Of a DNA stretch of 64,000 nucleotides, positions 1,583 to 62,905 are shown one piece after another. The DNA is taken from positions 7,146 to 71,145 of the forward strand of contig CALIKS010000035.1 of the NCBI GenBank assembly GCA_938017985.1. Direction: 5' to 3'. Position numbers and translations under genes: made by a program. Position 1 is the stretch's first letter. Each line of letters starts with the position of its first letter. The notes under the pieces were generated by a model. It saw only the letters and a program-made list of their open reading frames with translations. It was not told the DNA's origin and did no database searches. The stretch is from an uncultured archaeon (lineage in GTDB: Archaea > Thermoproteota > Nitrososphaeria_A > Caldarchaeales > Calditenuaceae).

Positions 1583-1622
1583 AAACCAAATTCATACCAA
1601 TTTTTTATCAAGCCTAAAAAAG

Positions 1623-44430: not shown

Positions 44431-45336
44431 CAATTTACATAATAAAGCAGCTGAAGTATGCATCCTATTCTCTGCCTGATTAATGATTATTGAAGATGGT
44501 CCGTCTGCTACTCTTTCCTCGACCTCTTCTCCCCTCTTCATAGGCATGCAATGCATAAACTTTACATCTGGTTTCGCTAGCCGCATCAGTGTTTCCGTTA
44601 CTTGGTACCGGGGAATAAAGACCTTAAGCTTTATTTCTCTCTCTAATTCTTGTCCCATCGATACAAAAACATCTGTATAGATGAAGTCAGCATCTCTTAC
44701 TGCTACTTCCGGATCATTTGTAAATTCTACTTTTGCCCCAGATAGTTTAGCCCATGAAAATGCCTGAGCCTTAATAGTCTCATCTACTTCATAGCCTCTA
44801 GGCGATGCTACCGAGATATCGACTCCGACTAATGCGCATATCTGTACAAGCGAGTTGCAGACGTTATTGCCGTCTCCTATGTATGCCACCTTTAAACGTT
44901 CTTTATCTCCGCCGTACTCCATCATGGTCATCAGGTCTGCGAGGGCTTGGCATGGATGATGTTTATCAGTAAGTGCATTGATGACAGGTACTGAACTATG
45001 ATTAGCCAATTCCACAATTGTCGAGTGACTAACTACTCTTGCAACTATTGCGTCGACGTATCTGGATAGTACTCTTGCGGTGTCTTTTATTGGTTCTCCT
45101 CTTGAAAGTTGTAGTTCGGTTGATGGTAGGAAGATTGTTTCTCCGCCGAGTTTGTAGATGGCTGAGGTGAATGAGACTCTTGTTCTTGTTGATGGTTTCT
45201 CGAATATTAGTGCTATTATTTTTCCTTTTAGTGCGTTGCTTGGGTAACTGTCTCTCTTGAATTTGAGTGCCAACTTGATGATCTCTAGGACTTCTTCCTT
45301 CTTCATGTTTGAGAATTCTATGAAGTTTTTTTCCAT
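44419..45336 (-). CDS. argF: Ornithine carbamoyltransferase
   Basis: STRTRVSF, HPCQALADL and HCMP motifs. 305 aa. Codon style switches abruptly near 45,060. Confidence 0.9.
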   Translation of the reverse strand: MEKNFIEFSNMKKEEVLEIIKLALKFKRDSYPSNALKGKIIALIFEKPSTRTRVSFTSAIYKLGGETIFLPSTELQLSRGEPIKDTARVLSRYVDAIVARVVSHSTIVELANHSSVPVINALTDKHHPCQALADLMTMMEYGGDKERLKVAYIGDGNNVCNSLVQICALVGVDISVASPRGYEVDETIKAQAFSWAKLSGAKVEFTNDPEVAVRDADFIYTDVFVSMGQELEREIKLKVFIPRYQVTETLMRLAKPDVKFMHCMPMKRGEEVEERVADGPSSIIINQAENRMHTSAALLCKLLGC

Positions 45337-45445
45337 GATTATCGTTTTACTGTCATTTATTGGTCGTATTTATTTCTTAGTCCTTCGATTTGGCTATGCT
45401 GTAAACCTTTACATTTGACTATGTTATCTGTGTTTGGTATCCGTC

Positions 45446-47191
45446 ATGTCGGAGTTTGAGATACGTGGGGCTAGGCTTTCGAGCGATGTGTTGAGGGTGC
45501 TCGGAGCTATCTCTGCTCCTGAGAGGGTTAGGATTCTTTTTATGCTTGAAGGTGGTGGGTTGGGTTATTCTGAGCTTATGAGGGCTGTCGGTATGGTTAG
45601 GCGGAGGGATGTCGGTAGATTTTCTTATCATCTTAGGAGGCTGCTTGAGGCTGGGCTCGTCGAGGTTGATAGGGAGTCTAAGCTTTATAGGCTTAGTGGG
45701 CTTGGTGTCTCGGTCGTTGAGTTGCTTAAGAATCTTTCTCTGAGGGTTGATCTTGGCGGCGTTGTATTTGTGCGGAGGAGTTTTTCTCTTGTTGAGCCGT
45801 TTGATAAGCTTAGGATTGTTGATTCTTTGGTGGCTGAGGCTGGTGTTCCTGCGAGGGTTGCTGGTAGGATTGCGAGTAGGGTTGAGAATGCTTTAGTTGG
45901 GCTGGGTCTCAGTACTGTTGATTCGAGTGTTATTCGTTGTCTTGTTGGTTATGAGCTTTTGAGTCGGGGTCTTGGTGGTTATTTTTTGAGGTATTTCTTG
46001 GTTGGTCCTAGCATGTATGAGGTTTCTCAGGCGGTTAGGAGGGGGCTTGGGAGTGGTGATTCTCTGCTTGTTGAGGAGACGATTGTGAGTGATGTTTTGG
46101 GTCGTTATGTGTTTAGGAGGGTTTTGCCGAGGGAGCTTGTTGAGTGTTGTTATGACGGATTGGTTGAGCTTTATCGTCCTGATTCTTGGATTAATGCTTT
46201 TTTGGGTTTTGGGTTGTTGTCTGAGTCTCGGAGTGTTGGTATTGATGAGTTGTTTTCTGCGTTGTTGCGTTTTAGGATGGTTAGGGATGAGGTGGTCGTT
46301 GCTGGTCAGTCTGTTTCTTGGAATGTTGTTGATAGGCTTGTTGAGTTGTTGAGGGGGGTTCGTTTTGGTTCTGCTGGACTATATGTTTGTTCTCGTGCTG
46401 ATTTGCTTAGTGGTAGGTTGGGGATGTTGGAGGGGCTTGTGGCTCGTGAGGACTTGATGTGTTCTTATTCGTTGCTGGATGGTTATGTGAGTCTCTCTCG
46501 GCTCGCTGATGGGTTGGTGCTTTTTAATTCGTTTGGTAGGCTTGGTGTCGGCGGGTCTTCTAGAGTCGTTGTGGGTGGGCTGTTCGGTGTTAATGTTGGA
46601 GGCATATTTCTTAGGAGTGAGGGCCGCGTGAATCTTGTCTTGTCTAGGCTTGGTGAGTTGTTGCGGCATGTTCTTCAGGCAGTTATGCGGAGGCATGGCT
46701 TCTTGGACAGGTTGCATCGAGAGTTGGGTGGTGTGCCTTGTTATTATTTTGTGGCTCCTGTCGGTCTTAGGGAGGTCTTAGGCGTGGTGGGTTCTGGTGG
46801 GTCGTCGAGCGAGGCGTCGAGGTTTCTTAGGGATGTTCTGTCTGTTTTTAGGGATGTTCTGTCTGGTTCTTCTGGGAAGAGGTTGAAGATTGTGACGGCT
46901 TCTGTGTGGCCTAGTGTTGTCTCTGAGAGTCTCTTTAAGCGTGATGTTGCGTCTCTTGGTTCTCAAGTTGTTTCGAGGGTTTTGGGGGGTGTTGGTGGAT
47001 ATTCTAACTGCTTGTTTGATTTTTCGTGTCCTGGCCTCGAGGAGACCATCCATGAGGTTGCTGGTTATTTTGACGCTGGGCTTGTTGTTCCTGTTGATCT
47101 TTCATTGGCTGGGGCTCGTGAGTCTCTTGGTAGGCTCTACGAGATGCTTGGTCTGGCTGATAATTTAGTCTTGAGGCTTAGGCGGTCTTAG
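45446..47191 (+). CDS. ArsR-type wHTH + ATP-cone + degenerate NrdD-like domain protein (uncharacterised architecture)
   Basis: wHTH: VLRVLGAISAPERVRILFMLEGGGLGYSELMRAV...FSYHLRRLLEAGLVEVDRESKLYRLS. ATP-cone: VFVRRSFSLVEPFDKLRIVDSLVAEAGVPARVAGRIASRVENAL...SSVIRCLVGYELLSRG. The segment VLPRELVECCYDGLVELYRPDSW parallels NrdD LLPRDVVQAHERGDIHYHDLDYS. Start is ATG 45446 or TTG 45434. Caveat: the region is so A-poor that all six frames are open. Confidence 0.65.
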   Translation: MSEFEIRGARLSSDVLRVLGAISAPERVRILFMLEGGGLGYSELMRAVGMVRRRDVGRFSYHLRRLLEAGLVEVDRESKLYRLSGLGVSVVELLKNLSLRVDLGGVVFVRRSFSLVEPFDKLRIVDSLVAEAGVPARVAGRIASRVENALVGLGLSTVDSSVIRCLVGYELLSRGLGGYFLRYFLVGPSMYEVSQAVRRGLGSGDSLLVEETIVSDVLGRYVFRRVLPRELVECCYDGLVELYRPDSWINAFLGFGLLSESRSVGIDELFSALLRFRMVRDEVVVAGQSVSWNVVDRLVELLRGVRFGSAGLYVCSRADLLSGRLGMLEGLVAREDLMCSYSLLDGYVSLSRLADGLVLFNSFGRLGVGGSSRVVVGGLFGVNVGGIFLRSEGRVNLVLSRLGELLRHVLQAVMRRHGFLDRLHRELGGVPCYYFVAPVGLREVLGVVGSGGSSSEASRFLRDVLSVFRDVLSGSSGKRLKIVTASVWPSVVSESLFKRDVASLGSQVVSRVLGGVGGYSNCLFDFSCPGLEETIHEVAGYFDAGLVVPVDLSLAGARESLGRLYEMLGLADNLVLRLRRS

Positions 47192-47197
47192 CTCCTT

Positions 47198-47599
47198 CTA
47201 CTGCCTTGACGTTTTTAGGGCTAGGATGGCTTTTGCGAGGTCTCCTTCTGCCTCGATGAGTGCTGCCTTTGCTTGTTCTTCGGTTACGCCTGCCTGCATT
47301 GCTACGATTGTTATGTCTTCTGGCGATGGCTCGTATGTTGTTGGCTTGGCTTCTATTTGCTGTGTTTCTTCTGTTTCTTCGCCGCCGATTATCTGGTAGA
47401 CTTTTCCTGCTGCTGTGTCTAGCGTGATGATGCTTGGATTGTTTATTCTTATTATTTTGTCGGTGAGTGTTATTGTGACTTCTTTTGCGGTTCCGAGTTC
47501 TTTCATCGAGACGCCTAGGCTGCTCATCATTCGGTCCTGCATTCTTCTTAGGTCTCTCGGTCCTAGACGTAGCGTTTTCTTCAATTGTTTTGACACCAT
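47198..47599 (-). CDS. nac: Nascent polypeptide-associated complex protein (NAC alpha homologue) with UBA domain
   Basis: NAC domain (MSSLGVSMKELGTAKEVTITLTDKIIRINNPSIITLD...YQIIG) and C-terminal UBA (EDITIVAMQAGVTEEQAKAALIEAEGDLAKAIL). Confidence 0.88.
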   Translation of the reverse strand: MVSKQLKKTLRLGPRDLRRMQDRMMSSLGVSMKELGTAKEVTITLTDKIIRINNPSIITLDTAAGKVYQIIGGEETEETQQIEAKPTTYEPSPEDITIVAMQAGVTEEQAKAALIEAEGDLAKAILALKTSRQ

Positions 47600-47666
47600 T
47601 CTTATTCTTGTCGGGGTATGCTTTATCTGTTTTGCTAATTGTGATGGAAATTTACTAGTAGGTGGT

Positions 47667-47843
47667 GGTGTTAAGCAGGTGATTTTTTATGATTTTTGCT
47701 TAACACTTAGTTCTCTTTCTATTTGGTTTTTCTGGGTATTGCTGCGCCTTAGTGGATTTGTAGCCTCTGCTATTTTTTGACTTCATTCCTACCTAGTAAT
47801 CTGTATTACATTTTTATATTGATTTTGAGATAATTAATTATTT
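47667..47843 (+). repeat. Intergenic repeat copy B (10-bp-stem hairpin plus TATA/promoter-like block)
   Basis: GTGTTAAGCA-ggtgattttttatgatttt-TGCTTAACAC (47667-47705), then TTTATATTGATTTTGAGATAATTAATTATTT (47813-47843). It is homologous to the inverted copy at 1623-1772. Confidence 0.8.
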
Positions 47844-47933
47844 GTTTCTCATTTGTCGTATGTCTGTGTATTTCACGGTATAGGTTATATTTATAAGGTA
47901 TTTTTTTCAGACTTTGTTTTTAGGGGCTCATAT

Positions 47934-49193
47934 TTGACGAGTATTTCTGACCTGAAGGTTATAATTCCTGTTGGTGGTGAGGCGAAACGTCTCAAGCCCC
48001 TTACTGCAGAGGTCTCGAAGGCGCTTGTAAGGTTCATGAACATGCCTCTTGTCGAGCATGCTATGGTCAAGCTTGCATGTCAAGGAGTTAGAGAATTTAT
48101 TTTTGGGGTTAAGGGCTATGTTAACTATAAGAGCCTCTATGATTATTTCCAAGAGGGTGAGGGCTTCTCGTCTAAGCATAATCTGAGTCATAATGTGCGT
48201 ATTTTTTATCAGCCCAACATTGACGATTTAGGCAGTGCAGACTCGGTGAGGTTGAATTTAGAGTATTATGATATTAATGATTACTTAATGGTTATTCAGG
48301 GCGATAATGTATTTGACATTGACCTTAGCGATGCGTTCTCTTTTCATGTCGAGAAGGGTGCGCTTATGACTATTGCTCTTACTCGTGTCTTGGATGTCGA
48401 GAGGTATGGCATAGCAGAAATGGATGAAGACATGAGGATTCGTAGGTTTATCGAGAAGCCGAGGAGGGGAGAGACCTCATCAAGCCTCGCAAATACTGGA
48501 ATATACATTATCTCTCCAGAGATTCGTAAAATTCTTTCAGGAGAAAAAGTGTCGAGGATTATGAGCGAGAGGAGGAGACTTGACTTTGGAATGGATTTAA
48601 TACCAATGCTCGTTGAAGAAGGATATCCTATCTATGGATATCCACTGCGGGCCGAGTGGTACGACGTCGGTACGCCCGAGACATACCTAGAATCAATGAT
48701 AAAGCTGCTTAAGAGTAGTAACGCATCCAAGTATCTAGGCGATACAGTGGACTCGTCCAGTAAACTATGGATTCAGACACATGACTCGGAGGATAATAAG
48801 AATAGGGAATCACTCATCAAGAAGATTAGGGACGGTAAAATAAGAATCGAGGGAGCAGCGCTCATAGGTAGACACTGCCAAATAGGCGACAATGTCGTAA
48901 TAAAGGATTCATGCATTGATAACTTCTCTATCATTCTCGACGATGCAGTAGTTGAGAGGTCAGCGATACTTGACAGGGTAATCATTGGCAAAGCGGCTCA
49001 GATACGTGATAGCATAGTCTCGAGACACGTAAAAATATTATCTTCCAGAAACAATCCCACGATGGTTGGAGATATCAGCGTCATCGGCGACGACGTCTGG
49101 GTTAGTGAGGGATGTGCAATAGTCGGGACAAAGATTTATCCACATCTACATATTCCTCCGAATAGTCGTCTCGTGAATGAGACGATTACGTGA
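47934..49193 (+). CDS. Sugar-phosphate nucleotidyltransferase with C-terminal left-handed beta-helix domain
   Basis: KVIIPVGGEAKRLKPLT (GxGxRL-type motif) with hexapeptide-repeat-like C-terminal segments. I prefer TTG 47934, because the track start at 47853 adds 27 non-conserved residues. Confidence 0.75.
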   Translation: MTSISDLKVIIPVGGEAKRLKPLTAEVSKALVRFMNMPLVEHAMVKLACQGVREFIFGVKGYVNYKSLYDYFQEGEGFSSKHNLSHNVRIFYQPNIDDLGSADSVRLNLEYYDINDYLMVIQGDNVFDIDLSDAFSFHVEKGALMTIALTRVLDVERYGIAEMDEDMRIRRFIEKPRRGETSSSLANTGIYIISPEIRKILSGEKVSRIMSERRRLDFGMDLIPMLVEEGYPIYGYPLRAEWYDVGTPETYLESMIKLLKSSNASKYLGDTVDSSSKLWIQTHDSEDNKNRESLIKKIRDGKIRIEGAALIGRHCQIGDNVVIKDSCIDNFSIILDDAVVERSAILDRVIIGKAAQIRDSIVSRHVKILSSRNNPTMVGDISVIGDDVWVSEGCAIVGTKIYPHLHIPPNSRLVNETIT

Positions 49194-49689: not shown

Positions 49690-50961
49690 GTGGGAGGGAC
49701 GAGGGGCAGGGTAGCCATCGTTCACAGGGCGCTTCCATGGGAAGAGCCAAACCTAGACGAGCTTGAAGAATTATGCAGCACGGCGGGCTACGAGGTTGTC
49801 TATAGACTATTCCAGAGACGCTACCCACACCCCGAGTATAACATCGGCCCATCCAAGCTATCAGAGCTTAAACAGGCAGTCAGAAAGCTCGGAATAACGA
49901 AGGTCATATTCGAGAACGAGCTCAGACCGCTGCAGGAATACAACTTGGCAAAGGAACTCTCCGTCGAGATAATGACTAGGCTCAGACTCATACTCGAGAT
50001 ATTCACCCAGCACGCGTCAAACCTCGAGGCAAAGCTTCAGATAAAGCTCGCAGAACTAAAATACGAACTACCGAGGGCGAAGGAGAAGGTCAAGCTAGCC
50101 AAACGTGGAGAGCAGCCGGGTTTCCACGGCCTAGGAGCCTACGAGGCAGACGTCTACTACGAGGAGATCAATAGAAGGATACATAAACTATCCGGGAAGC
50201 TAGAGGAGATAAAGAAGAAGAAGCTGAGGGCAAATATTCAGAGAAGAGTTGAGGGAATACCGATAATCTCGCTCGCAGGCTACACAAACGCTGGAAAATC
50301 CACGCTATTCAACGCAATCACGGGCTACGAGGTTGATGTCTCGCCGCAAATGTTCACGACGCTCTCGACGAAGAGAAGAATAGCACGGATAGATGGGAAG
50401 CCTGCATACATCTCCGACACAGTCGGATTCATCAGGAACGTCCCAACCCTACTCATCTCGTCATTCATGTCGACCCTTATGGAGATAGCTGAGGCGGACC
50501 TAATACTCCTCGTCCTAGACGTCTCCGAGCCGCCTGAGAACGTGCTGAATAAACTAGAAGCCTCACTCAGCATCCTGAGACAGATAGGCGTCACCAGCAC
50601 ACCCATAATACTCGTACTAAACAAGATAGACATCGCTTCACTCCAGAACATCGAGGAAGTCAAGGAGAAGATAGGCCAGAGCTACCCGACAATAGCCATC
50701 TCGGCGAAGAATAAAGAAAATATCGATGGGCTGCATCTCTTGGTCTCCCACTACCTGAACAGCTACGTCGCCTTCAGGGCAAGCCTCACACTAAGCGAGG
50801 AGGCAGAGAGACTAGTAAGGCAGACATACCTCAAGGGAAGAATAATCAACCTCCAGTACATGGACAACAAGATCATGATAGAGGCAGAGGCACCAATAGT
50901 AGTCGCAGAAAAAATAAAGAAGTTCTCAGAGCCAGAAGAATTCATAATAGTCAAGAGATGA
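49690..50961 (+). CDS. hflX: GTPase HflX
   Basis: HflX N-domain, G-domain (GYTNAGKSTLFN, DTVGFI, NKID). GTG start. Confidence 0.88.
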   Translation: MGGTRGRVAIVHRALPWEEPNLDELEELCSTAGYEVVYRLFQRRYPHPEYNIGPSKLSELKQAVRKLGITKVIFENELRPLQEYNLAKELSVEIMTRLRLILEIFTQHASNLEAKLQIKLAELKYELPRAKEKVKLAKRGEQPGFHGLGAYEADVYYEEINRRIHKLSGKLEEIKKKKLRANIQRRVEGIPIISLAGYTNAGKSTLFNAITGYEVDVSPQMFTTLSTKRRIARIDGKPAYISDTVGFIRNVPTLLISSFMSTLMEIAEADLILLVLDVSEPPENVLNKLEASLSILRQIGVTSTPIILVLNKIDIASLQNIEEVKEKIGQSYPTIAISAKNKENIDGLHLLVSHYLNSYVAFRASLTLSEEAERLVRQTYLKGRIINLQYMDNKIMIEAEAPIVVAEKIKKFSEPEEFIIVKR

Positions 50962-51111
50962 CTAAATCAAGAGCCCAAGATAGATTAGGAGCGATAACTC
51001 GACCAAGAGCAAGACCAGTAGCAGGATTATGCCAGGACTGAGACGCCTCATCCAGCTCTGCCTCACATTCACAAAAAGAAGGCCTACTGCCCAAGATAAT
51101 AGTATTATGGG

Positions 51112-51238
51112 TCTAGAATTTAGAAGAATCTCGTTGAATAATTTCTAAAATATTCTAGAAATACTGCTTTGGCTTAAGATTCCTAGAATTTCCTTGGATT
51201 TTCCTAAATTTTCCTCTGCGTGGGCTAGAGATATATAT
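51112..51238 (+). promoter_or_regulatory. Repeat-rich putative operator/promoter region
   Basis: Three (T/C)CTAGAA cores (51112, 51154, 51182). Three helically phased A(A/T)TTTCC repeats end at 51193, 51204 and 51214. An ATATATAT box at 51231-51238 lies ~25 nt before the GTG at 51262. Confidence 0.45.
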
Positions 51239-51261
51239 CGCTGAGGGCATTGATATGATTT

Positions 51262-51426
51262 GTGGCGGTATTCAGGAAGGAGGACCTCTACTGGGAAAGG
51301 CTCAGGGGACCATCGCTAATAATGCCATCAGACATCGAGCACCTAGTACGCGAAGTACAGCTACTAAAGGCCGAGGTACAGAAGATAAAAAAGGCACTGG
51401 AGGAGAGAGGCATCAAGATAGACTAG
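51262..51426 (+). CDS. Small (54-aa) coiled-coil protein, unannotated frame
   Basis: GTG 51262: (M)AVFRKEDLYWERLRGPSLIMPSDIEHLVREVQLLKAEVQKIKKALEERGIKID*. It has an amphipathic heptad-like C-half and looks leaderless from the upstream TATA box. The competing track ORF 51255-51449 is low-complexity. Confidence 0.45.
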   Translation: MAVFRKEDLYWERLRGPSLIMPSDIEHLVREVQLLKAEVQKIKKALEERGIKID

Positions 51427-51973
51427 GCAGGTCTCTGAAGAGTGTCTGAATAAGCGGCCTAAGCATCCTCGCGACCAACAGAGTCCTCTCGAGGTCAGTC
51501 CTGCAGTGATTAATGATTAGTCTCCTGCGACTCCTACTACCCGAGAGATACTCGGAGTAGAGCCTAGGAACGTCTATGCCCCCGTATTCCTCCTCATGCC
51601 TAATTCCTAGGAACCTGCATACTGACTGGAGGCTGTTCGAGCTGAGCCTAAGATGATTCCTCGAGACCTCCATCATGTCTATGTGCCTAGCCTCGAATAG
51701 TGGCGATGAGTCGACCCTAAGCCTCACGCATCTACTGACCATGAAGGGGACGTCGAATCCCAGTCCTCCCCAAGTGAAGTAGATGTTTACGCCGCGGAAA
51801 AACTCCATGAATTCCCTCAGAACCAGTTTCTCAGCGCTCGGGTTCTTGACGAAGTATATCTTCATCCTCCCATTGTAGAAGTCTGCCAGGCCTATGCATA
51901 CGACTTGGCCGGAGTCCGCGTGGAGACTATTTGTCTCGATGTCCAGCACGTATACACTGGGCCTCAGGCTCAA
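51413..51973 (-). CDS. RNase H-fold 3'-5' exonuclease-like protein (YprB/PolB-exo-like)
   Basis: VYVLDIETNSL (DxE), ...FTWGGLGFDVPF... and HCRTDLERT follow the DEDD-type exonuclease pattern. Confidence 0.65.
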   Translation of the reverse strand: MSLRPSVYVLDIETNSLHADSGQVVCIGLADFYNGRMKIYFVKNPSAEKLVLREFMEFFRGVNIYFTWGGLGFDVPFMVSRCVRLRVDSSPLFEARHIDMMEVSRNHLRLSSNSLQSVCRFLGIRHEEEYGGIDVPRLYSEYLSGSRSRRRLIINHCRTDLERTLLVARMLRPLIQTLFRDLPSLS

Positions 51974-52043
51974 CTCAGAGACAATAATTACTCGAGGTAA
52001 TTATCCTTTAATTCATGCCTCGAATAACACCTTATCTTCAGAT

Positions 52044-52505
52044 ATGCTAGTTAATATAATGGTGCGGCGATTAGTGATATTCGTGTCTGGACCAGACGAG
52101 TCTGAGCTTGACCGGATAATCCAGAGAAAGATGCGCGAGCTCATGAGGAGGGACGAGGAGCAGATAAAATCCATGGAATTTCCCTCAGAGCCCGTCGAGG
52201 TAACTGATGAAGACTTTGAAGAATTCATTTCTCGCTATCCATTGATAGTCGTCGATTTCTGGGCTGAGTGGTGCATGCCTTGCAGATTCTTGGCGCCGGT
52301 AGTGAAGGAATTGGCGGGGGAGCTGAGGGGAAAAGTCGTCTTCGGGAAGCTGAACGTCGATCAAAATCCAGTCACTTCGGCGAGGTTCGGCGTGATGAGT
52401 ATTCCAACGTTGATACTCTTCAAGAATGGCAGGCCGGTTGACGGTATAGTCGGGGCCGTCTCGAAGTCTAAGCTGAAGTCATTAATAATGAGGCACCTCT
52501 CTTAA
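52044..52505 (+). CDS. trxA: Thioredoxin (WCMPC active site) with charged N-terminal extension
   Basis: VVDFWAEWCMPCRFLAPV...MSIPTLILFKNG. The start must lie after the minus-strand gene end (ATG 52044 or 52059). Confidence 0.8.
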   Translation: MLVNIMVRRLVIFVSGPDESELDRIIQRKMRELMRRDEEQIKSMEFPSEPVEVTDEDFEEFISRYPLIVVDFWAEWCMPCRFLAPVVKELAGELRGKVVFGKLNVDQNPVTSARFGVMSIPTLILFKNGRPVDGIVGAVSKSKLKSLIMRHLS

Positions 52506-52579
52506 GATTCTTAGGATTTAAGACATTCCTTAATGTTTAAAGCCGAGATTGATGATTAATTAATTGTTGGCTGATTAGT

Positions 52580-53512
52580 TTGTTGATATCTCCGCCGATA
52601 AGTCTAGCCGACTACTTAAGTGAGCGAAGAAAGGAGCTGGATTCTTGGTTCCTCAAGAAGACTAGTGAATGCGTTGATGGTACTCTTGTAAGGGAGGTAA
52701 TCAAGGGTGGTAAGAGGCTTAGGCCCCTCTTACTAATGCTGGTCTTTGACGCTCTCGGCGGAGAGGATAGGGAGTCCGCACTCGACGTCGCGTATGCACT
52801 TGAATTAGCCCACAACGCTAGCTTGGTTCATGACGACATAATTGATTGGGACTTTTATAGACGGGGAAGACCGGCGCTGTGGAGACAAATCGGGATAGGA
52901 AGAGCAATAATTCAGGGCCACAGAGTCATAAACACTGCGTTCCGAACCGTCCTCGAGAAGGGAGTAGAGATTACGAGGCTTTTCCTAGAGGCGTGGGAGA
53001 ACGCATCATTAGGAGTGTTAGAGGAAATTTTCTCCTCGACGCCTCCGGCCAAGATGCTTTACCTAAGGATTATTCAGGAGAAGACAGCGTCTCTCTTCGC
53101 TGCTGGAGCGGAGTCTGCAGCCGTCCTTGCAGGCTGTGACGAAGAGACGAGGAAACTTGCGAGGAGATATGGCCTACTTGTAGGAACTCTCTATCAATTG
53201 GTTGACGATTACGTAGACCTTAGTCGCAATAAGGGACTGGTGAAGGTTGTCCTGCGTCTCAGGAATATTGATGAGCTCGTCAGGAAGGGATACATGGCAC
53301 TCAAGGCGGGTAGACTATTAAGTTTCTTAGAAATTGTCCGGCAGTCGAGGAAGTTTCACTCCTACATCGCTGAGATTATCCATGAGTGTTATGACGAGAT
53401 AGATAAAGTGACTAGTGAGATAAAAGTAAGAGAGGAGTTTAGACCACTTCTTAAAGAGTTCCCGAGATTCTGTGTCAATGAGATGCTTAAGGAGATTAAA
53501 TCAACAGCATAA
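52580..53512 (+). CDS. Polyprenyl (geranylgeranyl) diphosphate synthase
   Basis: FARM LVHDDIIDWD and SARM LVDDYVDL. TTG start. Confidence 0.85.
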   Translation: MLISPPISLADYLSERRKELDSWFLKKTSECVDGTLVREVIKGGKRLRPLLLMLVFDALGGEDRESALDVAYALELAHNASLVHDDIIDWDFYRRGRPALWRQIGIGRAIIQGHRVINTAFRTVLEKGVEITRLFLEAWENASLGVLEEIFSSTPPAKMLYLRIIQEKTASLFAAGAESAAVLAGCDEETRKLARRYGLLVGTLYQLVDDYVDLSRNKGLVKVVLRLRNIDELVRKGYMALKAGRLLSFLEIVRQSRKFHSYIAEIIHECYDEIDKVTSEIKVREEFRPLLKEFPRFCVNEMLKEIKSTA

Positions 53513-53562
53513 TTCAAAGTATATTATAATCAGTGTTTATGTAGTTTAAGCAGTGACGGGGC

Positions 53563-55143
53563 ATGGCTATCGATGGATTGATAGAGATAGCAACAGCTCT
53601 ATCTTTTTCGTGGCTGAGGCTCGGTGTTGCTCTGCTATTATCGATAGCCATGTCCCTACTGGTCGGCATTCCCGCTGGACTGAGCAGGACAGTAGAGCGC
53701 ATAGTACTGCCCATACTTGACGTGCTTCAGAGCGTCCCGATACTTGGATTCTTCCCAATCGCCGTCTACTTCTTTATCGCTCTAAACCCGGTCTTGGGAC
53801 CTGAGCTAGCCTCCATATTTCTAATCTTCACATCCACGTATTGGAACATGGCGTTCAGTGTCTACGAAGCTGTCAGAGCCATTCCTTCCGAGCTGACCGA
53901 CATTTCCCGCATAATTGACCTGAGTCTATCGAGGAGGCTCAGTAAAATAATTATTCCCGCCGCTCTTCCTAGGATTGTCTCCCAGCTACCCCCTTCGATT
54001 GCCAATGGACTCTACTTCCTGACCGCCAGCGAGATTATCTCTTTCGGAGAGAGGCAGATAAGCGTCATAGGTGTAGGATCAATAATATCTAAATACGTAA
54101 GCAGTGGCGATGCTTCAGGCCTAATTATATCGGTCATAGCCCTGTCGCTGAGCATTGCGCTTGTATTCACTTTGATTATTAATCCATTGATTGCGTGGTC
54201 TGATAAGTATAAGTTTGAGACAGTGGTGGCGCCTGGCAGGCCCTCTGCAATGGTTAGGATAGAGCCATTCAGAAGAATACTCACCACTCTTAAGACACGT
54301 ATTCCCCCGATCAGTATTCATGTCCAATTCCCTAGCACCTTCGTATACGTAAGCCACATGGCAAGACACGTTCAGCGCTTCATACTGATAGTTGCCATCA
54401 GTACTGCCACAATAATTGTGTTGACGCTCTCGACGAGCTACATCACCGACGTGCCCAAGATTATCATCAATGTTTATTCAGTGATTGGTGATTTGGGCTT
54501 CATGGTTATTTTCAGCTCAGTGATCATGTCTTTTGGAAGAATCTTTGCCGCCATCATACTTTCACTTTCATGGTCCCTACCCGTCGCATACTTCATTGCC
54601 AAGAACGAGAGGGCCAGGACATCTTTCCTACCACTGATACAGGTAATCGCCTCTATACCCGCACCAATATTCTTCCCATTGATAGCAGACGCATTTCTCT
54701 CAACAAGTGGCTACGCTGAGCTGGGATCGATCTTACTGATAGTCCTTGGAACTCAATGGTACGTATTTTACTCCATTCTGGGCGGGTTTCTAAGGATTCC
54801 AAACGAGTACCGCGAGCTTTCACTGAGCTATAGACTTAGCCGGCTGAAGGAGCTCTTCATGATATTCATTCCCTTCGCGATGCCATCACTAGTCACTGGA
54901 TTGATAACCGCTACTGGAGGTGCTTGGAACACCTTGGTGATTGCTGAGCGCCTCGTGCTGGGAGACCTAGTCTTCGAGACATCCATGCCTGGTCTTGGAA
55001 AACTACTCTCCCAGTTCACAGAGCTGGGCTCCATATATGGCATAGCGGTCATAGTTTTCTTGATGACGATTATCGTTGTCGCATTTAACAGATTCGTCTG
55101 GCGTCCACTCTACGACTGGGCCACGAAGATGGTGAGGTCATAG
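53563..55143 (+). CDS. ABC transporter permease, fused double-domain (NitT/TauT family)
   Basis: 526 aa containing two tandem BPD-transport-type permease modules (...LQSVPILGFFP... and ...IASIPAPIFFPL...). Confidence 0.75.
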   Translation: MAIDGLIEIATALSFSWLRLGVALLLSIAMSLLVGIPAGLSRTVERIVLPILDVLQSVPILGFFPIAVYFFIALNPVLGPELASIFLIFTSTYWNMAFSVYEAVRAIPSELTDISRIIDLSLSRRLSKIIIPAALPRIVSQLPPSIANGLYFLTASEIISFGERQISVIGVGSIISKYVSSGDASGLIISVIALSLSIALVFTLIINPLIAWSDKYKFETVVAPGRPSAMVRIEPFRRILTTLKTRIPPISIHVQFPSTFVYVSHMARHVQRFILIVAISTATIIVLTLSTSYITDVPKIIINVYSVIGDLGFMVIFSSVIMSFGRIFAAIILSLSWSLPVAYFIAKNERARTSFLPLIQVIASIPAPIFFPLIADAFLSTSGYAELGSILLIVLGTQWYVFYSILGGFLRIPNEYRELSLSYRLSRLKELFMIFIPFAMPSLVTGLITATGGAWNTLVIAERLVLGDLVFETSMPGLGKLLSQFTELGSIYGIAVIVFLMTIIVVAFNRFVWRPLYDWATKMVRS

Positions 55144-55911
55144 ATGAGCAACAAAGAGCCGATACTCAGCCTGATAGACGTCAAGTTTGAGCACAAGCTG
55201 AGGTCAGGCAGGACATTACCAATATTCAACAACATCAACCTATCAGTCCACTACACAGAGTTCCTGGGAATCGTTGGGCCGAGCGGATGCGGAAAGACAA
55301 CGCTCCTCAGGATAATGGCGGGCCTTGTGAGGCCGACCTCCGGCAGAGTAATCTTCAGAGGCGAGGAACTAACCGAGCCTAATCCTAGAATCTCATTGAT
55401 GTATCAGAACCCAACGCTGATTCCATGGCTCTCAATCTGGGACAACGTTTACCTCGCAATCTCGTCGAGGAAGGAAATGTCAGAGATAGAGAAGAGAGAG
55501 AAGACCTCTCTCTTCATCGACCTCGTGGGCCTAAGCGGCTACGAGTCAGCCTACCCGGCGGAGCTGAGCGGAGGAATGAAGCAGAGAGTCGCACTGGCGA
55601 GGGCGCTCGTCACTAGTCCGGACCTGCTCCTCCTCGACGAGCCCTTCAGCAACCTTGACCCCCTGACCGCAATAAACTTGATCAGAGAAGTCGAAAACAT
55701 GTGGCTTGACGCCAGCCTGCCCCCGGCATCTATCGTCATGGTCTCGCACAGCATAGAAGAAGTAGTCCAGCTCGCAGACAGAGTACTAGTACTTAAGGGA
55801 AGGCCGGCGGAAATAATAGCAGAGTTAAGGGTAGAGCTAGAGAGGCCGAGGAACAGGAAGTCTGACGAGTTTTACCGATACGTAGACGAGATATTTACCC
55901 TTGTGAGCTGA
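55144..55911 (+). CDS. ABC transporter ATP-binding protein (NitT/TauT family)
   Basis: Walker A GPSGCGKTT, signature LSGGMKQR, Walker B LLLLDEP. The ATG abuts the permease stop. Confidence 0.88.
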   Translation: MSNKEPILSLIDVKFEHKLRSGRTLPIFNNINLSVHYTEFLGIVGPSGCGKTTLLRIMAGLVRPTSGRVIFRGEELTEPNPRISLMYQNPTLIPWLSIWDNVYLAISSRKEMSEIEKREKTSLFIDLVGLSGYESAYPAELSGGMKQRVALARALVTSPDLLLLDEPFSNLDPLTAINLIREVENMWLDASLPPASIVMVSHSIEEVVQLADRVLVLKGRPAEIIAELRVELERPRNRKSDEFYRYVDEIFTLVS

Positions 55912-56416
55912 CCGCGTGAGGCCTCGTCCTCTTCCGCTTCAGCTTAAACGCCCTAGACTCTCCGTCATACTCAAGCCATCCAGTCATGACGAGCCAGTCA
56001 ATGATGTATGTCCTGAGCCTCTCGAGCCGCTCCTCGTCAGACTCGCATAGCTTTACGGCGTTGTTTATCTCCTCGACCGTAACCGGCCCGCCACTCGAGG
56101 CGACGTAGCTGATAATCGACTTGAAAGGCTCAACCTTATCGACTATCTCGCTCAGCATCTTTATCTTGCCCGCGGAGAGCCTCCTCGAGAATCCAATCCC
56201 ACTCTGAGTAATGTGGACGTCGCCGTCATCAACTTTGACTAGACCAAGCGACTCGGCCGCCTCTAGGACTCTCAGCAGCTGTCCAAGCTCCATTCCAACC
56301 TCCTTCGACAGCATCGGTAAGTCGACCCTACCCCTGTAGAGACTCACAACCTCTAATAGGCCGGCAACCATTCCGGGAGTAACGTCTAATGGGCATTTAG
56401 GCCCGTCTTGACTCAA
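55895..56416 (-). CDS. Stand-alone 'AAA-associated C-terminal' (PF09821-like) wHTH domain protein
   Basis: MVAGLLEVVSLYRGRVDLPMLSKEVGMELGQLLRVLEAAESLGLVKVDDGDVHITQSG resembles the domain normally fused to the C-terminus of NitT/TauT ATPases (family recalled from memory). Confidence 0.55.
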   Translation of the reverse strand: MSQDGPKCPLDVTPGMVAGLLEVVSLYRGRVDLPMLSKEVGMELGQLLRVLEAAESLGLVKVDDGDVHITQSGIGFSRRLSAGKIKMLSEIVDKVEPFKSIISYVASSGGPVTVEEINNAVKLCESDEERLERLRTYIIDWLVMTGWLEYDGESRAFKLKRKRTRPHAVSSQG

Positions 56417-56475
56417 CTCTCACTTAATCTAAGCCTCTCTCCTATATTAACTTGGTATATAAATCCGTGAAGAAA

Positions 56476-57633
56476 CTATTTATACATCCTTAATATTCTG
56501 CCGACGACCTCGTCGACCCCGCCTAGCATCTCTGCCTGTTCTGAGTATTTTTTCAGGACTCCTTCATCGAGCGATTCGAGAGCCCTCATTACTGCATTCC
56601 TGACCGTCTCAGGGCTCAGCGACTCCTCCCTGACTATGACTGCTGCGTTCCTCCTCAAGAGGCTCTGCGCGTTAGACTCCTGCTCGGAGTGCCTCGGAAT
56701 CGGCACCACTATGAGCCTGCAGCCATAGGCAAGGGCCTTTGTCAGGAGCGACTGGCCAGCCCTGGTCAAGACGACGTCAGCCGCGGCGAGAAGCCTGTAC
56801 TCATCCTCAAACCAGTCGAGGACCCAGTGCCTATCAGTCCTGACGGAGACTGTGCCAGCCGGCCTGCCACGAGTAAAGACTACCTGTAGGTCTCTTAGCG
56901 CCGGCAATGCTTGCATCAGCCTGTCTGCGATTCTCTCCCTCTCAAGCCTAGGCCCAGTTGCCTGCATCAGTACTAGGGGCTCGTCGGGATTGAAGCCCAA
57001 TTCTTCCTTGAGCATGGTCCTAGAGGCATAGTCCCTGGGACGCCTACTCATTACTGGCCCGACGTAAACAGTCCTTCGAGCAACGTCTTCAGGAAGCCTG
57101 AGGTTTTCCTCAGAGACGGTCAGGGGCGGTGGATAATCAGCAATCATTATCTCGTCGCTCAGCGACCATACGTGTCCAACGATGCTTGAGGCGGCCTCAG
57201 CGACTTCTGCAAGCCTACGCCACCTCTCACTCCTGACGAGGATGTAGAACTGGTTTAGGAGAAGAGCGACTGGGATTCCAAGAAGCTTCGCGGCAAGGAC
57301 AGTAGTAGCCCTGGTGTCTGAAAAAGCGGCGAGAGCCTCAGCCTCATCCATAATCCTAATCTCTATAAGCGTCTGTGCCATGACCCTTAAGGGTAGAAAT
57401 ACATTTTTGAGGATTGTCCCCCTGAAGCTGAAGGCTCCGTCTGGCCCAAGTCCATAACCAACTGATGGAATCTTATTAATCCTGAATCCATGTCGAGTAA
57501 AATACTCGACCGCGTCTCCATAAGTCGAGATTGAGAGCTCGCATCCCCTCGATAGCAGCTTCTCAGCGATTACCATGCTGCGTGAGGCATGCCCAAGCCC
57601 GATGCCGCATACTCCCATGTGTATCCTACGCAT
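56476..57633 (-). CDS. Glycosyltransferase, GT1/GT28 (MurG/UGT-like) family
   Basis: N-terminal GIGLGHASRS loop and GT-B two-domain layout. 385 aa. Confidence 0.7.
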   Translation of the reverse strand: MRRIHMGVCGIGLGHASRSMVIAEKLLSRGCELSISTYGDAVEYFTRHGFRINKIPSVGYGLGPDGAFSFRGTILKNVFLPLRVMAQTLIEIRIMDEAEALAAFSDTRATTVLAAKLLGIPVALLLNQFYILVRSERWRRLAEVAEAASSIVGHVWSLSDEIMIADYPPPLTVSEENLRLPEDVARRTVYVGPVMSRRPRDYASRTMLKEELGFNPDEPLVLMQATGPRLERERIADRLMQALPALRDLQVVFTRGRPAGTVSVRTDRHWVLDWFEDEYRLLAAADVVLTRAGQSLLTKALAYGCRLIVVPIPRHSEQESNAQSLLRRNAAVIVREESLSPETVRNAVMRALESLDEGVLKKYSEQAEMLGGVDEVVGRILRMYK

Positions 57634-57651
57634 GTCTATTCCTAGTCCTGA

Positions 57652-58287
57652 TTAGCAGGTTCTTCGACGAAGCGACCTGAGGTCTATCCTGACGACTTGG
57701 CCGTTCGGCTCCTTCTCCGCGAATATCTCTGCTGAGAAGCGCTTAATCACGGCCTGGCCTGTGAGCCAGTATGTGGACGGTAGACCTGCCTTGAAGCACA
57801 GGTTCGTCAAGAACTCCTCGGCGTCCCAGCCGTACTCTACTGGAACTTGGGGGAGCAGTAGTCCTGAGCCGAGCCTAGACTCGATTATGAGTCCGTCTCT
57901 TCCTATCTCGATCATGCTTGGCAGCGTTTTCCTATCCTTTACTGGTATCTCTTCTGGAAACGTCAGCACGCTCACTTCGACTACTATCCTGTCCAGCTCT
58001 TCTCTCTCTAGCGGCATGAATCTCGGGTCGCCGAAGGCCGCGCTTATCGCCGCGTCTATTACCTGTTCTAGGAAGTCCTTCACTGGGTATGGATAGCCTA
58101 TGCATCCCCTTAGCTCGAGCTCTGGATAAGTATTGAGCGTGACGAATACTCCTCTCCTAAGTGTTCTAAGCCTATCTGGCGCAGAGCTAGGTATCCCGAA
58201 GCTTTCTCTCATGACTCTAGAAGTGATTGCTTCTCTCGCCAGCTTGACTAGGAATTCTCCCTCTCCGTCGCTTATTGTTTCGGCCAC
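57652..58287 (-). CDS. AMMECR1 domain protein
   Basis: ...GVFVTL...LRGCIGYP...DPRF.PL...SLL.PQV... are the AMMECR1 hallmarks. Confidence 0.85.
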   Translation of the reverse strand: MAETISDGEGEFLVKLAREAITSRVMRESFGIPSSAPDRLRTLRRGVFVTLNTYPELELRGCIGYPYPVKDFLEQVIDAAISAAFGDPRFMPLEREELDRIVVEVSVLTFPEEIPVKDRKTLPSMIEIGRDGLIIESRLGSGLLLPQVPVEYGWDAEEFLTNLCFKAGLPSTYWLTGQAVIKRFSAEIFAEKEPNGQVVRIDLRSLRRRTC

Positions 58288-58331
58288 GGATATAGTCTCC
58301 TCGTGGACTTTAATATGTTTATACTCCTTGT

Positions 58332-58799
58332 CTAATACGTCTCTCGAATCCTATTAGCGGTGAGGTATGCACGCCTAATCGTCCTCAATATGTTTCTCCA
58401 GTGACTACCAATCCAGAATCTTTGTCCACAAGACGTACATCTCCATATGCCTTTTAACTCTTGGCGGAGAGCACCGTTGCAGATTGAGCATCTCGTTATC
58501 CTTGGTTTTAAGAACTCTTCGAGCGGGATGTTGAGTTCTCTTGAGACGTATGCAGCGACCTCGGCGAGGGTTGCTTCAACGTCTTGGTGATGAAGAAGGC
58601 ATGACCTAAGTCCCTTGTTTAGGGCGGCGCGGTGAAGCTCTACGTCAGACGTAATTATTATTCTTCCAGAGCTCGATGCATTATCTATTAGGTCTTCGTC
58701 GCTTCCCTCCCAGTACTCCGAGTCGTATCCAAGAATTCTTAGCCATCTGCAGAGGTTTCCATGCATTGAGTCGACGATGAATAATGGACCGCTACTCAC
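58332..58799 (-). CDS. Mut7-C (DUF82) PIN-like RNase domain protein with zinc ribbon
   Basis: FIVDSMHGNLCRWLRILGYD...IITSD...CSICNG...WRCTSCGQRFWIGSHW. Confidence 0.8.
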   Translation of the reverse strand: MSSGPLFIVDSMHGNLCRWLRILGYDSEYWEGSDEDLIDNASSSGRIIITSDVELHRAALNKGLRSCLLHHQDVEATLAEVAAYVSRELNIPLEEFLKPRITRCSICNGALRQELKGIWRCTSCGQRFWIGSHWRNILRTIRRAYLTANRIRETY

Positions 58800-59364
58800 T
58801 CCTCTTCGCTAGCTCTAGTCTGCAGTCTTCGCATAAGTATTGTTCGTCAACCCGGAGGAGCATGTCGCTCCACTCTCCACAAGAGTCGCAGTATCCCTCC
58901 ATGAATTGTTCAGAGCCTATGGAGCTCGTCCCCTTCAGCCTCATCTGTTCCTTAACAATCTCCAATATGTCTGGAGTAACTTTCAGGATGTCCTTTACGC
59001 TGATTATTCCGTGGACCTCGTCCTTATAGGTCACGACGAGTCGGCTTATCCCTATTCTGTTCATCCTCCTCAATGCCTCCTCGATGGTTTCGTCTGGACT
59101 CGCAGTTATTAGGGGAGTAGACATTATCTCGGAGACCTTGACGTCGCTGGGCTTCTTATCCAGCGCGACTACCTTTTCTATCAGGTCCCTCTTAGTCACT
59201 ATGCCTACTGGTTTTCCATTCTTTTTTACGACTATCCCGCTGATCTTATACTTCGCCATTAGTTCTGCGACTTCTTTAGCCGTATCGTCTACGTTGACCT
59301 CAATAACCGGGCTACTCATCACGTCTCTAACCATCACTTCGTCGCTTAGGAACCTCTTCTTCAA
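58792..59364 (-). CDS. CBS-domain pair protein with C-terminal zinc ribbon
   Basis: Two CBS repeats (VRDVMSSPVIEV..., VSEIMSTPLITA...) followed by CDSCGEWSD...LCEDC. Confidence 0.8.
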   Translation of the reverse strand: MKKRFLSDEVMVRDVMSSPVIEVNVDDTAKEVAELMAKYKISGIVVKKNGKPVGIVTKRDLIEKVVALDKKPSDVKVSEIMSTPLITASPDETIEEALRRMNRIGISRLVVTYKDEVHGIISVKDILKVTPDILEIVKEQMRLKGTSSIGSEQFMEGYCDSCGEWSDMLLRVDEQYLCEDCRLELAKRSE

Positions 59365-59454
59365 CCGGGTCTCCAGTTAACGATAACCACTCCAGTTAAA
59401 TAAGTTTATCCCCATCATGTCGCCTACTAAGTAGTCCCTAGATGTCTCGGCTAA

Positions 59455-61344: not shown

Positions 61345-61392
61345 GCCTGACCTTCCATTTTCCTATTAATCATCGCTCCATATATATCGCCA

Positions 61393-62127
61393 ATGATGAA
61401 TACCCAACTGGGCGTCAGCCCTATGCAGATATACGTCGGGACATCGGGCTGGCTCTACGACTGGAACATTGGCAGGAGCCTAGAATGGTACGTAAAGAAC
61501 AGCGGACTAAACTCAATAGAGCTGAACATGTCCTTCTACAGGTATCCAACTAGAAAGACCGTAGAGATATGGGCAGAGAAGGGAAAAACACTGAGATGGA
61601 GCATCAAGGCCAGCAGACTAATAACACATGTCTATCGATTCGGAGAAAAAGCAGAGACAGCGTGGAATAGGTTCAAGGAACTGTTCAGCCCAATCGAGGA
61701 GAAAATTGACTATTACCTATTCCAGCTCCCACCATCCATGACCCCGAGACACGTATCAAGAATAGAGAGATTCATCTTAAAGACTGAGCTAGGCAGCAGA
61801 CTCGCATTGGAGTGGAGAAGCCCAGAGTGGTTCAGAGAAGAATGGATAAGATGGGCGATAGACCTCGGAATAACACCCGTAAGCATAGATGCACCTGAAC
61901 TTCCAAGAACAATCTTCAAGTCAGGCCAGGCGGTATACTTAAGAATGCATGGAAGATACGCATGGTACAGCCACGACTACACTGATGAAGAACTAAAAGA
62001 GGTAGCTGAATCAATCGTCAAGAACTCGCCAGGCAAGGTCCACGTCTACTTCAACAACAACCACGCAATGCTTAGAAACGCGCGTAGAATGCTTAAAATC
62101 CTTATAGAAGAAGCGTCAGCTCTTTGA
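61393..62127 (+). CDS. DUF72 family protein
   Basis: YVGTSGWLYDWN..., SFYRYP, YLFQLPPS, RMHGR...YSHDYTDEEL are the DUF72 signature blocks. Confidence 0.85.
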   Translation: MMNTQLGVSPMQIYVGTSGWLYDWNIGRSLEWYVKNSGLNSIELNMSFYRYPTRKTVEIWAEKGKTLRWSIKASRLITHVYRFGEKAETAWNRFKELFSPIEEKIDYYLFQLPPSMTPRHVSRIERFILKTELGSRLALEWRSPEWFREEWIRWAIDLGITPVSIDAPELPRTIFKSGQAVYLRMHGRYAWYSHDYTDEELKEVAESIVKNSPGKVHVYFNNNHAMLRNARRMLKILIEEASAL

Positions 62128-62220
62128 GGACTCTTTCTCGAAGCATTTGCCGCAGAGCCTCTTCCCCCTCCAGAGCCTCAGGTCCTCTACCTTCCTTCCA
62201 CAGACCTCGCACCTAGGCAT
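62116..62220 (-). CDS. Small (34-aa) zinc-ribbon protein, unannotated
   Basis: Minus-strand ATG 62220: MPRCEVCGRKVEDLRLWRGKRLCGKCFEKESSKS* (CxxC-15-CxxC). It overlaps the DUF72 3' end by 12 nt and is below the ORF-track size cut-off. Confidence 0.45.
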   Translation of the reverse strand: MPRCEVCGRKVEDLRLWRGKRLCGKCFEKESSKS

Positions 62221-62343
62221 CCCACACTCCTCAAAAAAATATTAAAAATCATCGAGATTTAAGCTTAGACATGTTTAACTGGTCAGAATACTATTCTTTT
62301 GAAGATGCTTAACGTTTTTTAAGAATATTTATGAAGTATATGA

Positions 62344-62901
62344 GTGATTGACTTGAACTTAGTTAGGACTTTTCTTGAGTCCGCGAAGCGTAACTATGCG
62401 GACGTCTCACTCATGCATGGATACAATGAAGCTGCGAAGAAAATAGCAGAGATAGCATCGGATAACAGGGTCTCAAGCATAGCTCTCTCTAGGCTGCCTG
62501 ACAAATTACTCGAAAATCTGAGGAATGAACTAGCAGGAGTAAAGACGATCTACAACCTTGATAATTATCGACTCGAGGATGCCTCTAAGTTTGCTGAGAG
62601 CGCCGAGATGGGCGTCGTACTGGCTGACGCGGGCCTCGCCGAGATCGGCGTAATCATCATTATGAATAGCTATTCTGCCAGGCTTGCCACAACTCTTCCG
62701 AGACGACTCGCCGCAGTTCTGCCGGCAAGCAATATTCTAGCGACTTATGATGATTTGGCTGACTACTTCTCAAAAAGGTACGGCGAGGCTGGCGCTGCTT
62801 TCATGATAGCTGGCCCAAGCGGCACCTCTGACATCGAGCTTACCTTCGTCAAAGGCGTGCATGGCCCGGGTGATGCACACTTTATCGTCGTGGAGGAATG
62901 A
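62344..62901 (+). CDS. lutC: LUD-domain protein LutC-like
   Basis: 185-aa LUD pattern (...GVVLADAGLAEIGVIIIMNS...LP...). GTG start. Directly upstream of a LutB-like gene. Confidence 0.7.
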   Translation: MIDLNLVRTFLESAKRNYADVSLMHGYNEAAKKIAEIASDNRVSSIALSRLPDKLLENLRNELAGVKTIYNLDNYRLEDASKFAESAEMGVVLADAGLAEIGVIIIMNSYSARLATTLPRRLAAVLPASNILATYDDLADYFSKRYGEAGAAFMIAGPSGTSDIELTFVKGVHGPGDAHFIVVEE

Positions 62902-62905
62902 TAAG

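Follow-up and report, generated by a model that had tools for sequence, protein, structure and literature searches.

What is the role of a gene that places a DNA-binding domain in front of the nucleotide-sensing domain and the core of an anaerobic ribonucleotide reductase (RNR)? This question is raised by a gene, here called gene X (45446-47191, + strand; 581 amino acids plus stop), in a stretch of 64,000 nucleotides from an uncultured Calditenuaceae archaeon (contig CALIKS010000035.1; the whole stretch is referred to below as the window). A sequence-only reading of the window had proposed that gene X combines a winged helix-turn-helix (wHTH) with the ATP-cone of an RNR and with an inactivated core of the class III RNR NrdD. 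Profile searches, a predicted structure and alignments bore out this architecture, and we conclude that the product, protein X, probably acts as a nucleotide-sensing regulator of genes, of a kind not described before, although its role as such is putative.

Gene X is a true and intact gene, delimited by the list of open reading frames (ORFs), by the starts of its orthologues and by selection acting in its frame. The ORF list gives an ATG start at 45446 and an alternative in-frame start, a TTG at 45434 that would lead to a product of 585 amino acids (residue numbers throughout count from this TTG). Alignment revealed that orthologue N-termini coincide with the ATG, so that the interval singled out by the sequence-only reading is indeed the gene, and a public protein collection contains an identical 581-amino-acid entry. 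The coding strand of gene X contains 12.9% A and 13.4% C (3.4% and 8.2% at third codon positions), amounting to a G+T content of 74%. Open frames are therefore cheap in this A-poor sequence, and stops are few in its other frames, with 16 in frame +1 and five in one minus-strand frame. We estimated the ratio of non-synonymous to synonymous divergence (dN/dS) by the Nei-Gojobori method among six orthologues, in the true frame and in two shifted frames. The ratio was 0.22-0.42 in frame and rose to 0.73-0.94 and 1.6-1.9 when the frame was shifted; gene X is thus under purifying selection. About 50 orthologous ORFs are intact, without frameshifts or stops, and they include lineages of ordinary composition, for which A-depletion cannot explain the open frame. 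Split by domain, dN/dS was lowest in the wHTH (0.18), followed by the ATP-cone (0.20) and the body with its barrel (0.31-0.34); within the gene X clade, the wHTH and the ATP-cone are thus the most constrained parts and the barrel is the least constrained.

The winged helix, which the sequence-only reading had described as ArsR/SmtB-like, was recognized directly. Residues 23-97 (45500-45724, + strand) matched Pfam DUF7347 with 32.5 bits (cut-off 27.6; E 1e-7) and HTH_5 with 28 bits (cut-off 22; E 2e-6), while NCBIfam HTH_metalloreg scored 30.2 bits on protein X, under its cut-off of 55. Searches of PDB sequences with protein X or with the full profile of its clade returned ArsR-family chains only (NmtR, YgaV and ArsR). 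The sequence of this domain contains no cysteines at all, and so none of those that form the ArsR/SmtB metal site. We obtained an AlphaFold model of protein X from 22 sequences, including distant members of the family (the short forms described below), with a predicted local distance difference test score (pLDDT) of 83.4 and a predicted template modelling score of 0.72; the model built with 11 close sequences reached a pLDDT of 48.9 and was unusable past the wHTH. In the former, the wHTH has a pLDDT of 81-91 and is followed by a domain with ATP-cone topology (residues 112-187) and then by an alpha/beta body.

The ATP-cone and the NrdD parts were established by profile searches, this confident model and alignment rather than by direct scan. 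The ATP-cone occupies residues ~110-190 (45761-46003, + strand). We scored a profile of the gene X clade, built without the wHTH, against 1.84 billion representative proteins, which yielded 569 proteins at E <= 1e-3. Canonical NrdDs were matched over the cone and the next ~65 residues with E values of 1e-10 to 1e-13. Distant syntenic orthologues exceed the Pfam ATP-cone threshold themselves (e.g. P0014 with 38 bits, E 2.4e-9), and the cone of protein X is 32% identical to that of one canonical NrdD. In the model, the domain adopts the bb-a-a-b-a-a topology, with strands at residues 112-115 and 119-122, helices at 125-136 and 140-157, a strand at 161-163 and helices at 164-177 and 181-187. The cone hairpin V113-R114-R115 and the motif E121-P-F-D-K-L-R127-I are nearly invariant among orthologues, and V113-R114-R115 can be compared with Lys7/Arg8 of PcNrdD (PMC11226230). 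Y183 and R186 are kept in the last cone helix, where the mapping of residues is approximate.

The cone is followed by the post-cone helices (residues 193-262; 46010-46219, + strand), which contain VLPRELVECCYDGLVELYRPDSW. The multiple alignment placed this segment opposite LLPQHLVAAHFNGAIHIHDADYF of canonical NrdD, upholding the motif match that the sequence-only reading had proposed. The remainder, residues 263-585 (46220-47188, + strand), is a degenerate NrdD alpha/beta barrel. Comparison of residues 195-585 with the bodies of longer family members by hhalign gave a probability of 91.6% (E 8e-7, 190 columns), and a profile of the short forms matched NrdD structures in the PDB (9D3X, E 6.7e-12; 4COI, E 3.9e-5). 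A verified NrdD recovered protein X by plain phmmer with an E value of 1.8e-6 in a small local set. When the model was compared with the PDB by Foldseek, the top 22 matches were class III RNRs, with a probability of 1.00 and template modelling (TM) scores up to 0.5, and class I R1 came next. Among them were S. thermophilus 9D3X (2e-10), Prevotella copri 8P2C and, with a TM score of 0.50, T. maritima 4CON.

Several elements of NrdD are missing from this body. In NrdD, the post-cone segment forms the effector site at the dimer interface and the NxN flap, which in PcNrdD connects cone and active site (PMC11226230); alignments revealed that the flap is deleted in protein X and in all wHTH-bearing forms. 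The canonical finger loop, NSMGCRTRL or SQCCR, is reduced to a relic, FNSFGRLG (residues 364-371; 46523-46546, + strand), from which the thiyl-radical cysteine is gone, and the canonical NLPR motif has become VNVGG. These relic active-site positions (finger loop, NLPR and NxN) vary even between close orthologues. Protein X stops with the last strand of the barrel; its last 150 residues contain no CxxC of a Zn ribbon, and its sequence has no glycyl-radical R-x-x-G-Y motif, in agreement with the truncated core that the sequence-only reading had described. Because the glycyl-radical domain, the Zn ribbon, the thiyl-radical cysteine, the NxN flap and the NLPR motif are all gone, protein X cannot be an RNR.

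Gene X belongs to a larger family. Its closest relatives form 11 orthologue clusters of ~580 amino acids and 55-65% identity from metagenome-assembled genomes of Nitrososphaerota, while the matches of the clade profile fall into three groups: short forms of 545-603 amino acids, long forms of 700-780 amino acids and canonical NrdDs. By Pfam, the short forms consist of DUF7347, ATP-cone and NRDD (e.g. P0014, NRDD E 2.8e-15), the long forms have the same three domains (e.g. P0041, which covers NRDD positions 9-562 of 562, E 1e-67) and the canonical enzymes have ATP-cone and NRDD (e.g. P0108, NRDD E 5e-152). Among the 150 best-scoring cluster representatives, at least 84 have the wHTH. Of these 84, 47 retain the Zn ribbon and none has the glycyl motif, which is also absent from all 78 complete wHTH-bearing long forms from metagenomes. 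Some long wHTH forms without the glycyl motif still carry the finger-loop cysteine, in the sequence ATGCRF (L067 1171-3513; L077 7965-10295), and such forms may mark a halfway stage in losing catalysis. The losses of Zn ribbon, finger-loop cysteine and C-terminus are thus graded across members, so that stages of decay are preserved within the family. We further noticed three proteins of ~610-630 amino acids (P0052, P0054 and P0060) with an ATP-cone, an NrdD-like part and a different N-terminal extension of ~65 amino acids, which lack the wHTH, the Zn ribbon, the glycyl motif and the finger-loop cysteine; they may represent another non-catalytic NrdD lineage.

A distribution scan of one genome per species revealed 43 loci, nearly all in thermophilic Nitrososphaeria/'Aigarchaeota'. 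Gene X loci were found in the genera Terraquivivens, Wolframiiraptor, Geocrenenecus, Pelearchaeum, Benthortus and Caldarchaeum, and the long forms are those of Bathyarchaeia. The sequence-only reading had considered that the family might already have an assigned function. Databases name its members generically, as 'wHTH domain-containing' or 'ATP-cone domain-containing', or wrongly, as 'anaerobic ribonucleoside-triphosphate reductase'; the long forms are annotated as the latter, as 'helix-turn-helix domain-containing' or as 'hypothetical'. We found no published description of this architecture or of DUF7347 in a literature of which our coverage was incomplete, so that an earlier mention, for example in arCOG, is possible. 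The wrong name, which many members carry, inflates the anaerobic deoxyribonucleoside triphosphate (dNTP) synthesis inferred for metagenome-assembled genomes.

The long forms provide the link to RNR genes. In a metagenome scan we collected 80 long-form loci among more than 585 matches, 62 of which had usable downstream sequence. A genuine nrdD lies directly downstream on the same strand in 32 of the 62, and the glycyl motif is present in 24 of the 25 complete copies; nrdJ is nearby in two loci, and pyrB or pyrI comes next in 13. NCBIfam assigned NrdD (TIGR02487, 488 bits), NrdJ, PyrB and PyrH at these loci. One Bathyarchaeia-type group has a small NrdH/glutaredoxin-like ORF with a CxxC between the wHTH gene and nrdD. 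A conserved A/T-rich element, TTAGAATAAAcaATTTAAAATTTTGTAT, containing the imperfect palindrome ATTTAAAATTTTGTAT, precedes the NrdH-like ORF and nrdD at ~100-330 nucleotides, mostly ~100, past the wHTH gene (L076, L078, L080, L085, L092, L097, L101 and L110; e.g. L076 2763-2790). It is a candidate promoter or operator of the nrd operon. The element occurs once per locus in the Bathyarchaeia-type loci, with no second copy upstream of the wHTH gene, and therefore gives no evidence for autoregulation.

We favour, with moderate confidence, the reading that protein X is a transcription factor derived from a pseudoenzyme, which would respond to nucleotides and control dNTP supply in analogy to NrdR. 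This reading is based on the strong constraint on wHTH and ATP-cone, on the adjacency of the family to RNR genes and on the rarity of NrdR in archaea. It agrees with the function suggested by the sequence-only reading, a DNA-binding protein gated by nucleotides, which gains support from the position of long forms upstream of nrdD or nrdJ and from the same constraint. What the data show is the architecture of protein X, its loss of catalytic elements, the purifying selection on its gene, the wide vertical conservation of the latter and the position of long forms next to nrdD or nrdJ; DNA binding, the ligand, dimerization, whether regulation is positive or negative, and the targets in this organism are inferred.

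As the long forms stand in tandem with nrdD, a duplicate of this gene is the probable ancestor of gene X. In the simplest scenario, the class III RNR gene nrdD would have been duplicated in tandem, and the upstream copy would have gained an N-terminal ArsR-type wHTH and lost its radical chemistry, giving rise to the long forms. In Nitrososphaeria, the C-terminal domains and the RNR neighbour would then have been lost, leaving the short forms, including protein X, with ATP-cone and barrel retained as a scaffold. The protein would dimerize through its NrdD-like core. ATP or dATP would bind the ATP-cone, and dNTPs might bind the relic effector site. Binding would alter the oligomeric state or the arrangement of domains and thereby change operator binding by the two winged helices, so that dNTP-supply genes would be transcribed in step with nucleotide pools, as achieved by NrdR in bacteria.

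The comparison with NrdR is instructive. In both proteins a DNA-binding module is directly followed by an ATP-cone. Nucleotide-dependent oligomerization gates DNA binding by NrdR (PMC9110341), and we propose the same logic for protein X. NrdR is often encoded beside RNR genes, which in the family of gene X holds for the long forms. The two differ, however, in that the N-terminus of NrdR is a Zn ribbon, while that of protein X is an ArsR-type winged helix without CxxC pairs. NrdR is ~150-170 amino acids long and ends after the cone, whereas the 581 amino acids of protein X include a dead NrdD core of ~390 amino acids. The cone of protein X derives from NrdD itself, the two proteins have independent origins, and we found no operator resembling an NrdR box upstream of gene X. 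As NrdR is rare in archaea (PMC9110341), the control of RNR and dNTP-supply transcription in these organisms is largely unknown. The family, widespread in Bathyarchaeia and thermophilic Nitrososphaeria and in many genomes encoded next to nrdD or nrdJ, is a concrete candidate for this control, and one built from the nucleotide-sensing domain of the enzyme itself. It also offers a clean case of an enzyme duplicate turned regulator, with extant intermediates that range from long forms with a Zn ribbon, some also with the finger-loop cysteine, to short forms that have neither.

A more far-reaching version, which we regard as speculative and rather improbable, is that the entire allosteric apparatus of RNR, both the activity site in the ATP-cone and the specificity site at the dimer interface, serves as the sensor of a transcription factor. 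A single protein would then read the dATP/ATP ratio and the balance of dNTPs into gene expression; it would fill, in archaea, the place of the missing NrdR, and its ancestor would be its own target enzyme. In the same version, the gene would in this lineage have reached 74% G+T through a self-reinforcing process, such as R-loop formation that leaves the coding strand open to deamination.

Several observations weigh against the view of protein X as a nucleotide-responsive regulator of dNTP supply. On protein X alone, neither Pfam ATP-cone (PF03477), Pfam NRDD nor NCBIfam gave a match to these parts; Pfam ATP-cone matched only three of seven clade members (best E 0.0059), and a cone profile made from the clade only found no cone among PDB sequences. 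The last cone helix has a single basic residue (R186) in the gene X clade, compared with two in the wider family. Given these missing matches and the loss of the second basic residue, the cone of protein X could have lost nucleotide binding. The ATP-cone claimed by the sequence-only reading therefore stands by the clade profile, the Pfam matches of orthologues, the model topology and the conserved motif, and not by a Pfam match of its own; the lack of a significant cone match, which that reading had named as a ground for giving up the idea, is real for protein X alone and is overturned by profiles and structure. Neither RNR genes nor other ATP-cone genes were found in the window or in the flanks of any short form, and in Bathyarchaeia the position beside nrdD may in part reflect past tandem duplication instead of regulation. 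Protein X evolves two to three times faster than its neighbours (dN 0.17-0.33 versus 0.06-0.19). Finally, seven orthologous upstream regions and a wider comparison revealed no conserved operator palindrome upstream of gene X.

Alternatively, protein X could regulate carbamoyl-phosphate, arginine or pyrimidine metabolism, with its wHTH acting on the argF promoter (or on pyrB, pyrI or pyrH in relatives) and its ATP-cone reading purine status. The gene for ornithine carbamoyltransferase, argF (assigned by NCBIfam), lies divergently ~110 nucleotides upstream of gene X in the window, and does so in its clade, in Terraquivivens, Pelearchaeum, Caldarchaeum and others; pyrB, pyrI or pyrH also flank long forms without an adjacent nrdD, in the 13 of 62 loci mentioned above. 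However, the upstream neighbour differs by lineage; others have Spt5-L11-L1, IF-2B or a solute-binding protein in its place. The most frequent arrangement of long forms puts pyrB and pyrI beyond nrdD, where they may belong to an old conserved neighbourhood, and the argF-X spacer yielded no operator. We consider this alternative unlikely. Downstream of gene X, ~40 loci share a convergent NAC gene with HflX beyond it. Gene X, intact and syntenic in about 45 genomes of thermophilic Nitrososphaerota/Aigarchaeota, is a vertically inherited core gene among housekeeping genes, and these neighbours reveal no target. In one orthologous locus (L002 171-1055) we noticed an ORF resembling a LAGLIDADG homing endonuclease a few kilobases upstream; the equivalent part of the window has none.

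The argF-X intergenic region (45337-45445), common to the two divergent genes, was compared by alignment of seven orthologous upstream regions and in the wider comparison. Close orthologues have only promoter-like A/T-rich blocks in common. One conserved block, GTATTTATTTCTTAG (45366-45380), is likely the TATA region of argF, and the other, AAACCTTTACATTT (45403-45416), is likely the B recognition element and TATA box of gene X. Palindromes overlapping the TATA box were considered as an operator and rejected, since they are lineage-specific (GTAAA-CC-TTTAC here, CTTAA-CA-TTAAG in relatives). An Rfam scan of 44800-48200 matched no RNA family, and oligo-T runs in gene X that might act as premature terminators gave no signal (seven runs of at least T5, compared with 6.8 expected from codon shuffling).

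Protein X could also be a non-catalytic RNR-like subunit, an allosteric partner that binds an active RNR or another protein through the NrdD dimer interface, with the wHTH as a module for interaction or localization. Dead paralogues frequently regulate their active relatives; in Bathyarchaeia the family stands in tandem with a genuine nrdD, and ATP-cone and post-cone helices are conserved with canonical NrdD. We nevertheless judge this possibility to be slightly weaker than control of argF or pyr genes, because the wHTH is the most constrained part of the protein and matches models of the DNA-binding ArsR family over threshold, short forms have no nrdD beside them and the surface of the barrel evolves fast.

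It is very improbable that the remaining barrel has acquired a new, non-radical activity on nucleotides. The barrel fold is kept and is still under purifying selection, and some long forms retain the finger-loop cysteine, but protein X has lost this cysteine along with NLPR and the NxN flap, their positions vary among close orthologues and the barrel is the least constrained part. Least credible of all is a decaying nrdD pseudogene or a non-coding stretch held open by A-depletion, which the base composition, the scarcity of stops in other frames and the fast evolution of the protein might have suggested and which the sequence-only reading had itself raised; we reject it on the frame-specific dN/dS, the ~50 intact orthologous ORFs, the constraint that differs by domain and the confident fold.

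A regulator of dNTP supply built in this way can be set beside other known proteins. Compared with the class III NrdDs that carry an ATP-cone (P. copri 8P28, S. thermophilus 9D3X and T. maritima 4COI), protein X is homologous over cone, post-cone helices and barrel, but has an added wHTH and lacks the five elements listed above, from the glycyl-radical domain to NLPR. Its N-terminal 100 residues resemble ArsR/SmtB and DUF7347 proteins, exceeding model thresholds and matching solved ArsR-family structures. The ArsR/SmtB proteins, in contrast, are single-domain dimeric metal sensors of ~100-120 amino acids with Cys/His sites, whereas protein X is a multidomain protein with a separate predicted nucleotide sensor and has no cysteines in the helix-3 region. 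In MocR/GabR (aminotransferase fold) and the ROK repressors NagC/Mlc (sugar-kinase fold), a disabled enzyme fold is the sensing or dimerization module of a wHTH regulator. As in protein X, a whole demoted enzyme fold is attached to a winged helix; here, however, the fold is an RNR barrel with an ATP-cone, the predicted ligands are nucleotides and the range is that of TACK archaea. We know of no characterized member of wHTH regulators with an RNR fold. Protein X would thus fall among the wHTH regulators whose sensor derives from an enzyme, with nucleotide sensing based on an ATP-cone.

Gene X is also the centre of a strand-asymmetric G+T island of ~3.2 kb (44950-48150, + strand G+T), which comprises the 5' end of argF, gene X, the NAC gene and both intergenic regions. 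No other part of the window is as extreme in G+T; the maximum is 0.78, compared with a mean of 0.495 (standard deviation 0.06). The profile is bell-shaped: G+T climbs in the 5' end of argF, peaks at 0.79-0.83 in the middle of gene X and falls off again across the convergent NAC gene and the NAC promoter. The NAC gene (47198-47599, - strand) has 1.5% T and 53% A at third positions, the most extreme values in the window and a mirror image of gene X, so the asymmetry is a property of the DNA region and not of gene orientation. Synonymous divergence (dS) of gene X is three to four times below that of neighbouring genes, and that of NAC is also reduced (0.57-1.16). The island is present in close orthologous loci and absent at the same syntenic position in distant ones. 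Its pattern resembles what A-to-G and C-to-T pressure on the + strand, that is, deamination of a displaced strand, would leave behind.

Elsewhere in the window, 1351-3129 has the opposite skew, with + strand G+T below 0.36. This coincides with a gene for a BMP-family-like lipoprotein (1792-3117, - strand), the coding strand of which is ~65% G+T; a long, low-complexity ORF on the + strand (2200-4776) overlaps part of it and looks spurious in the overlap. G+C content rises from ~0.36-0.46 in 1-50000 to 0.47-0.535 in 50000-64000, where third-position usage shifts too and several genes have only 7-10% T at third positions. The shift near 50000 may mark the boundary of a compositional domain or an acquired segment.

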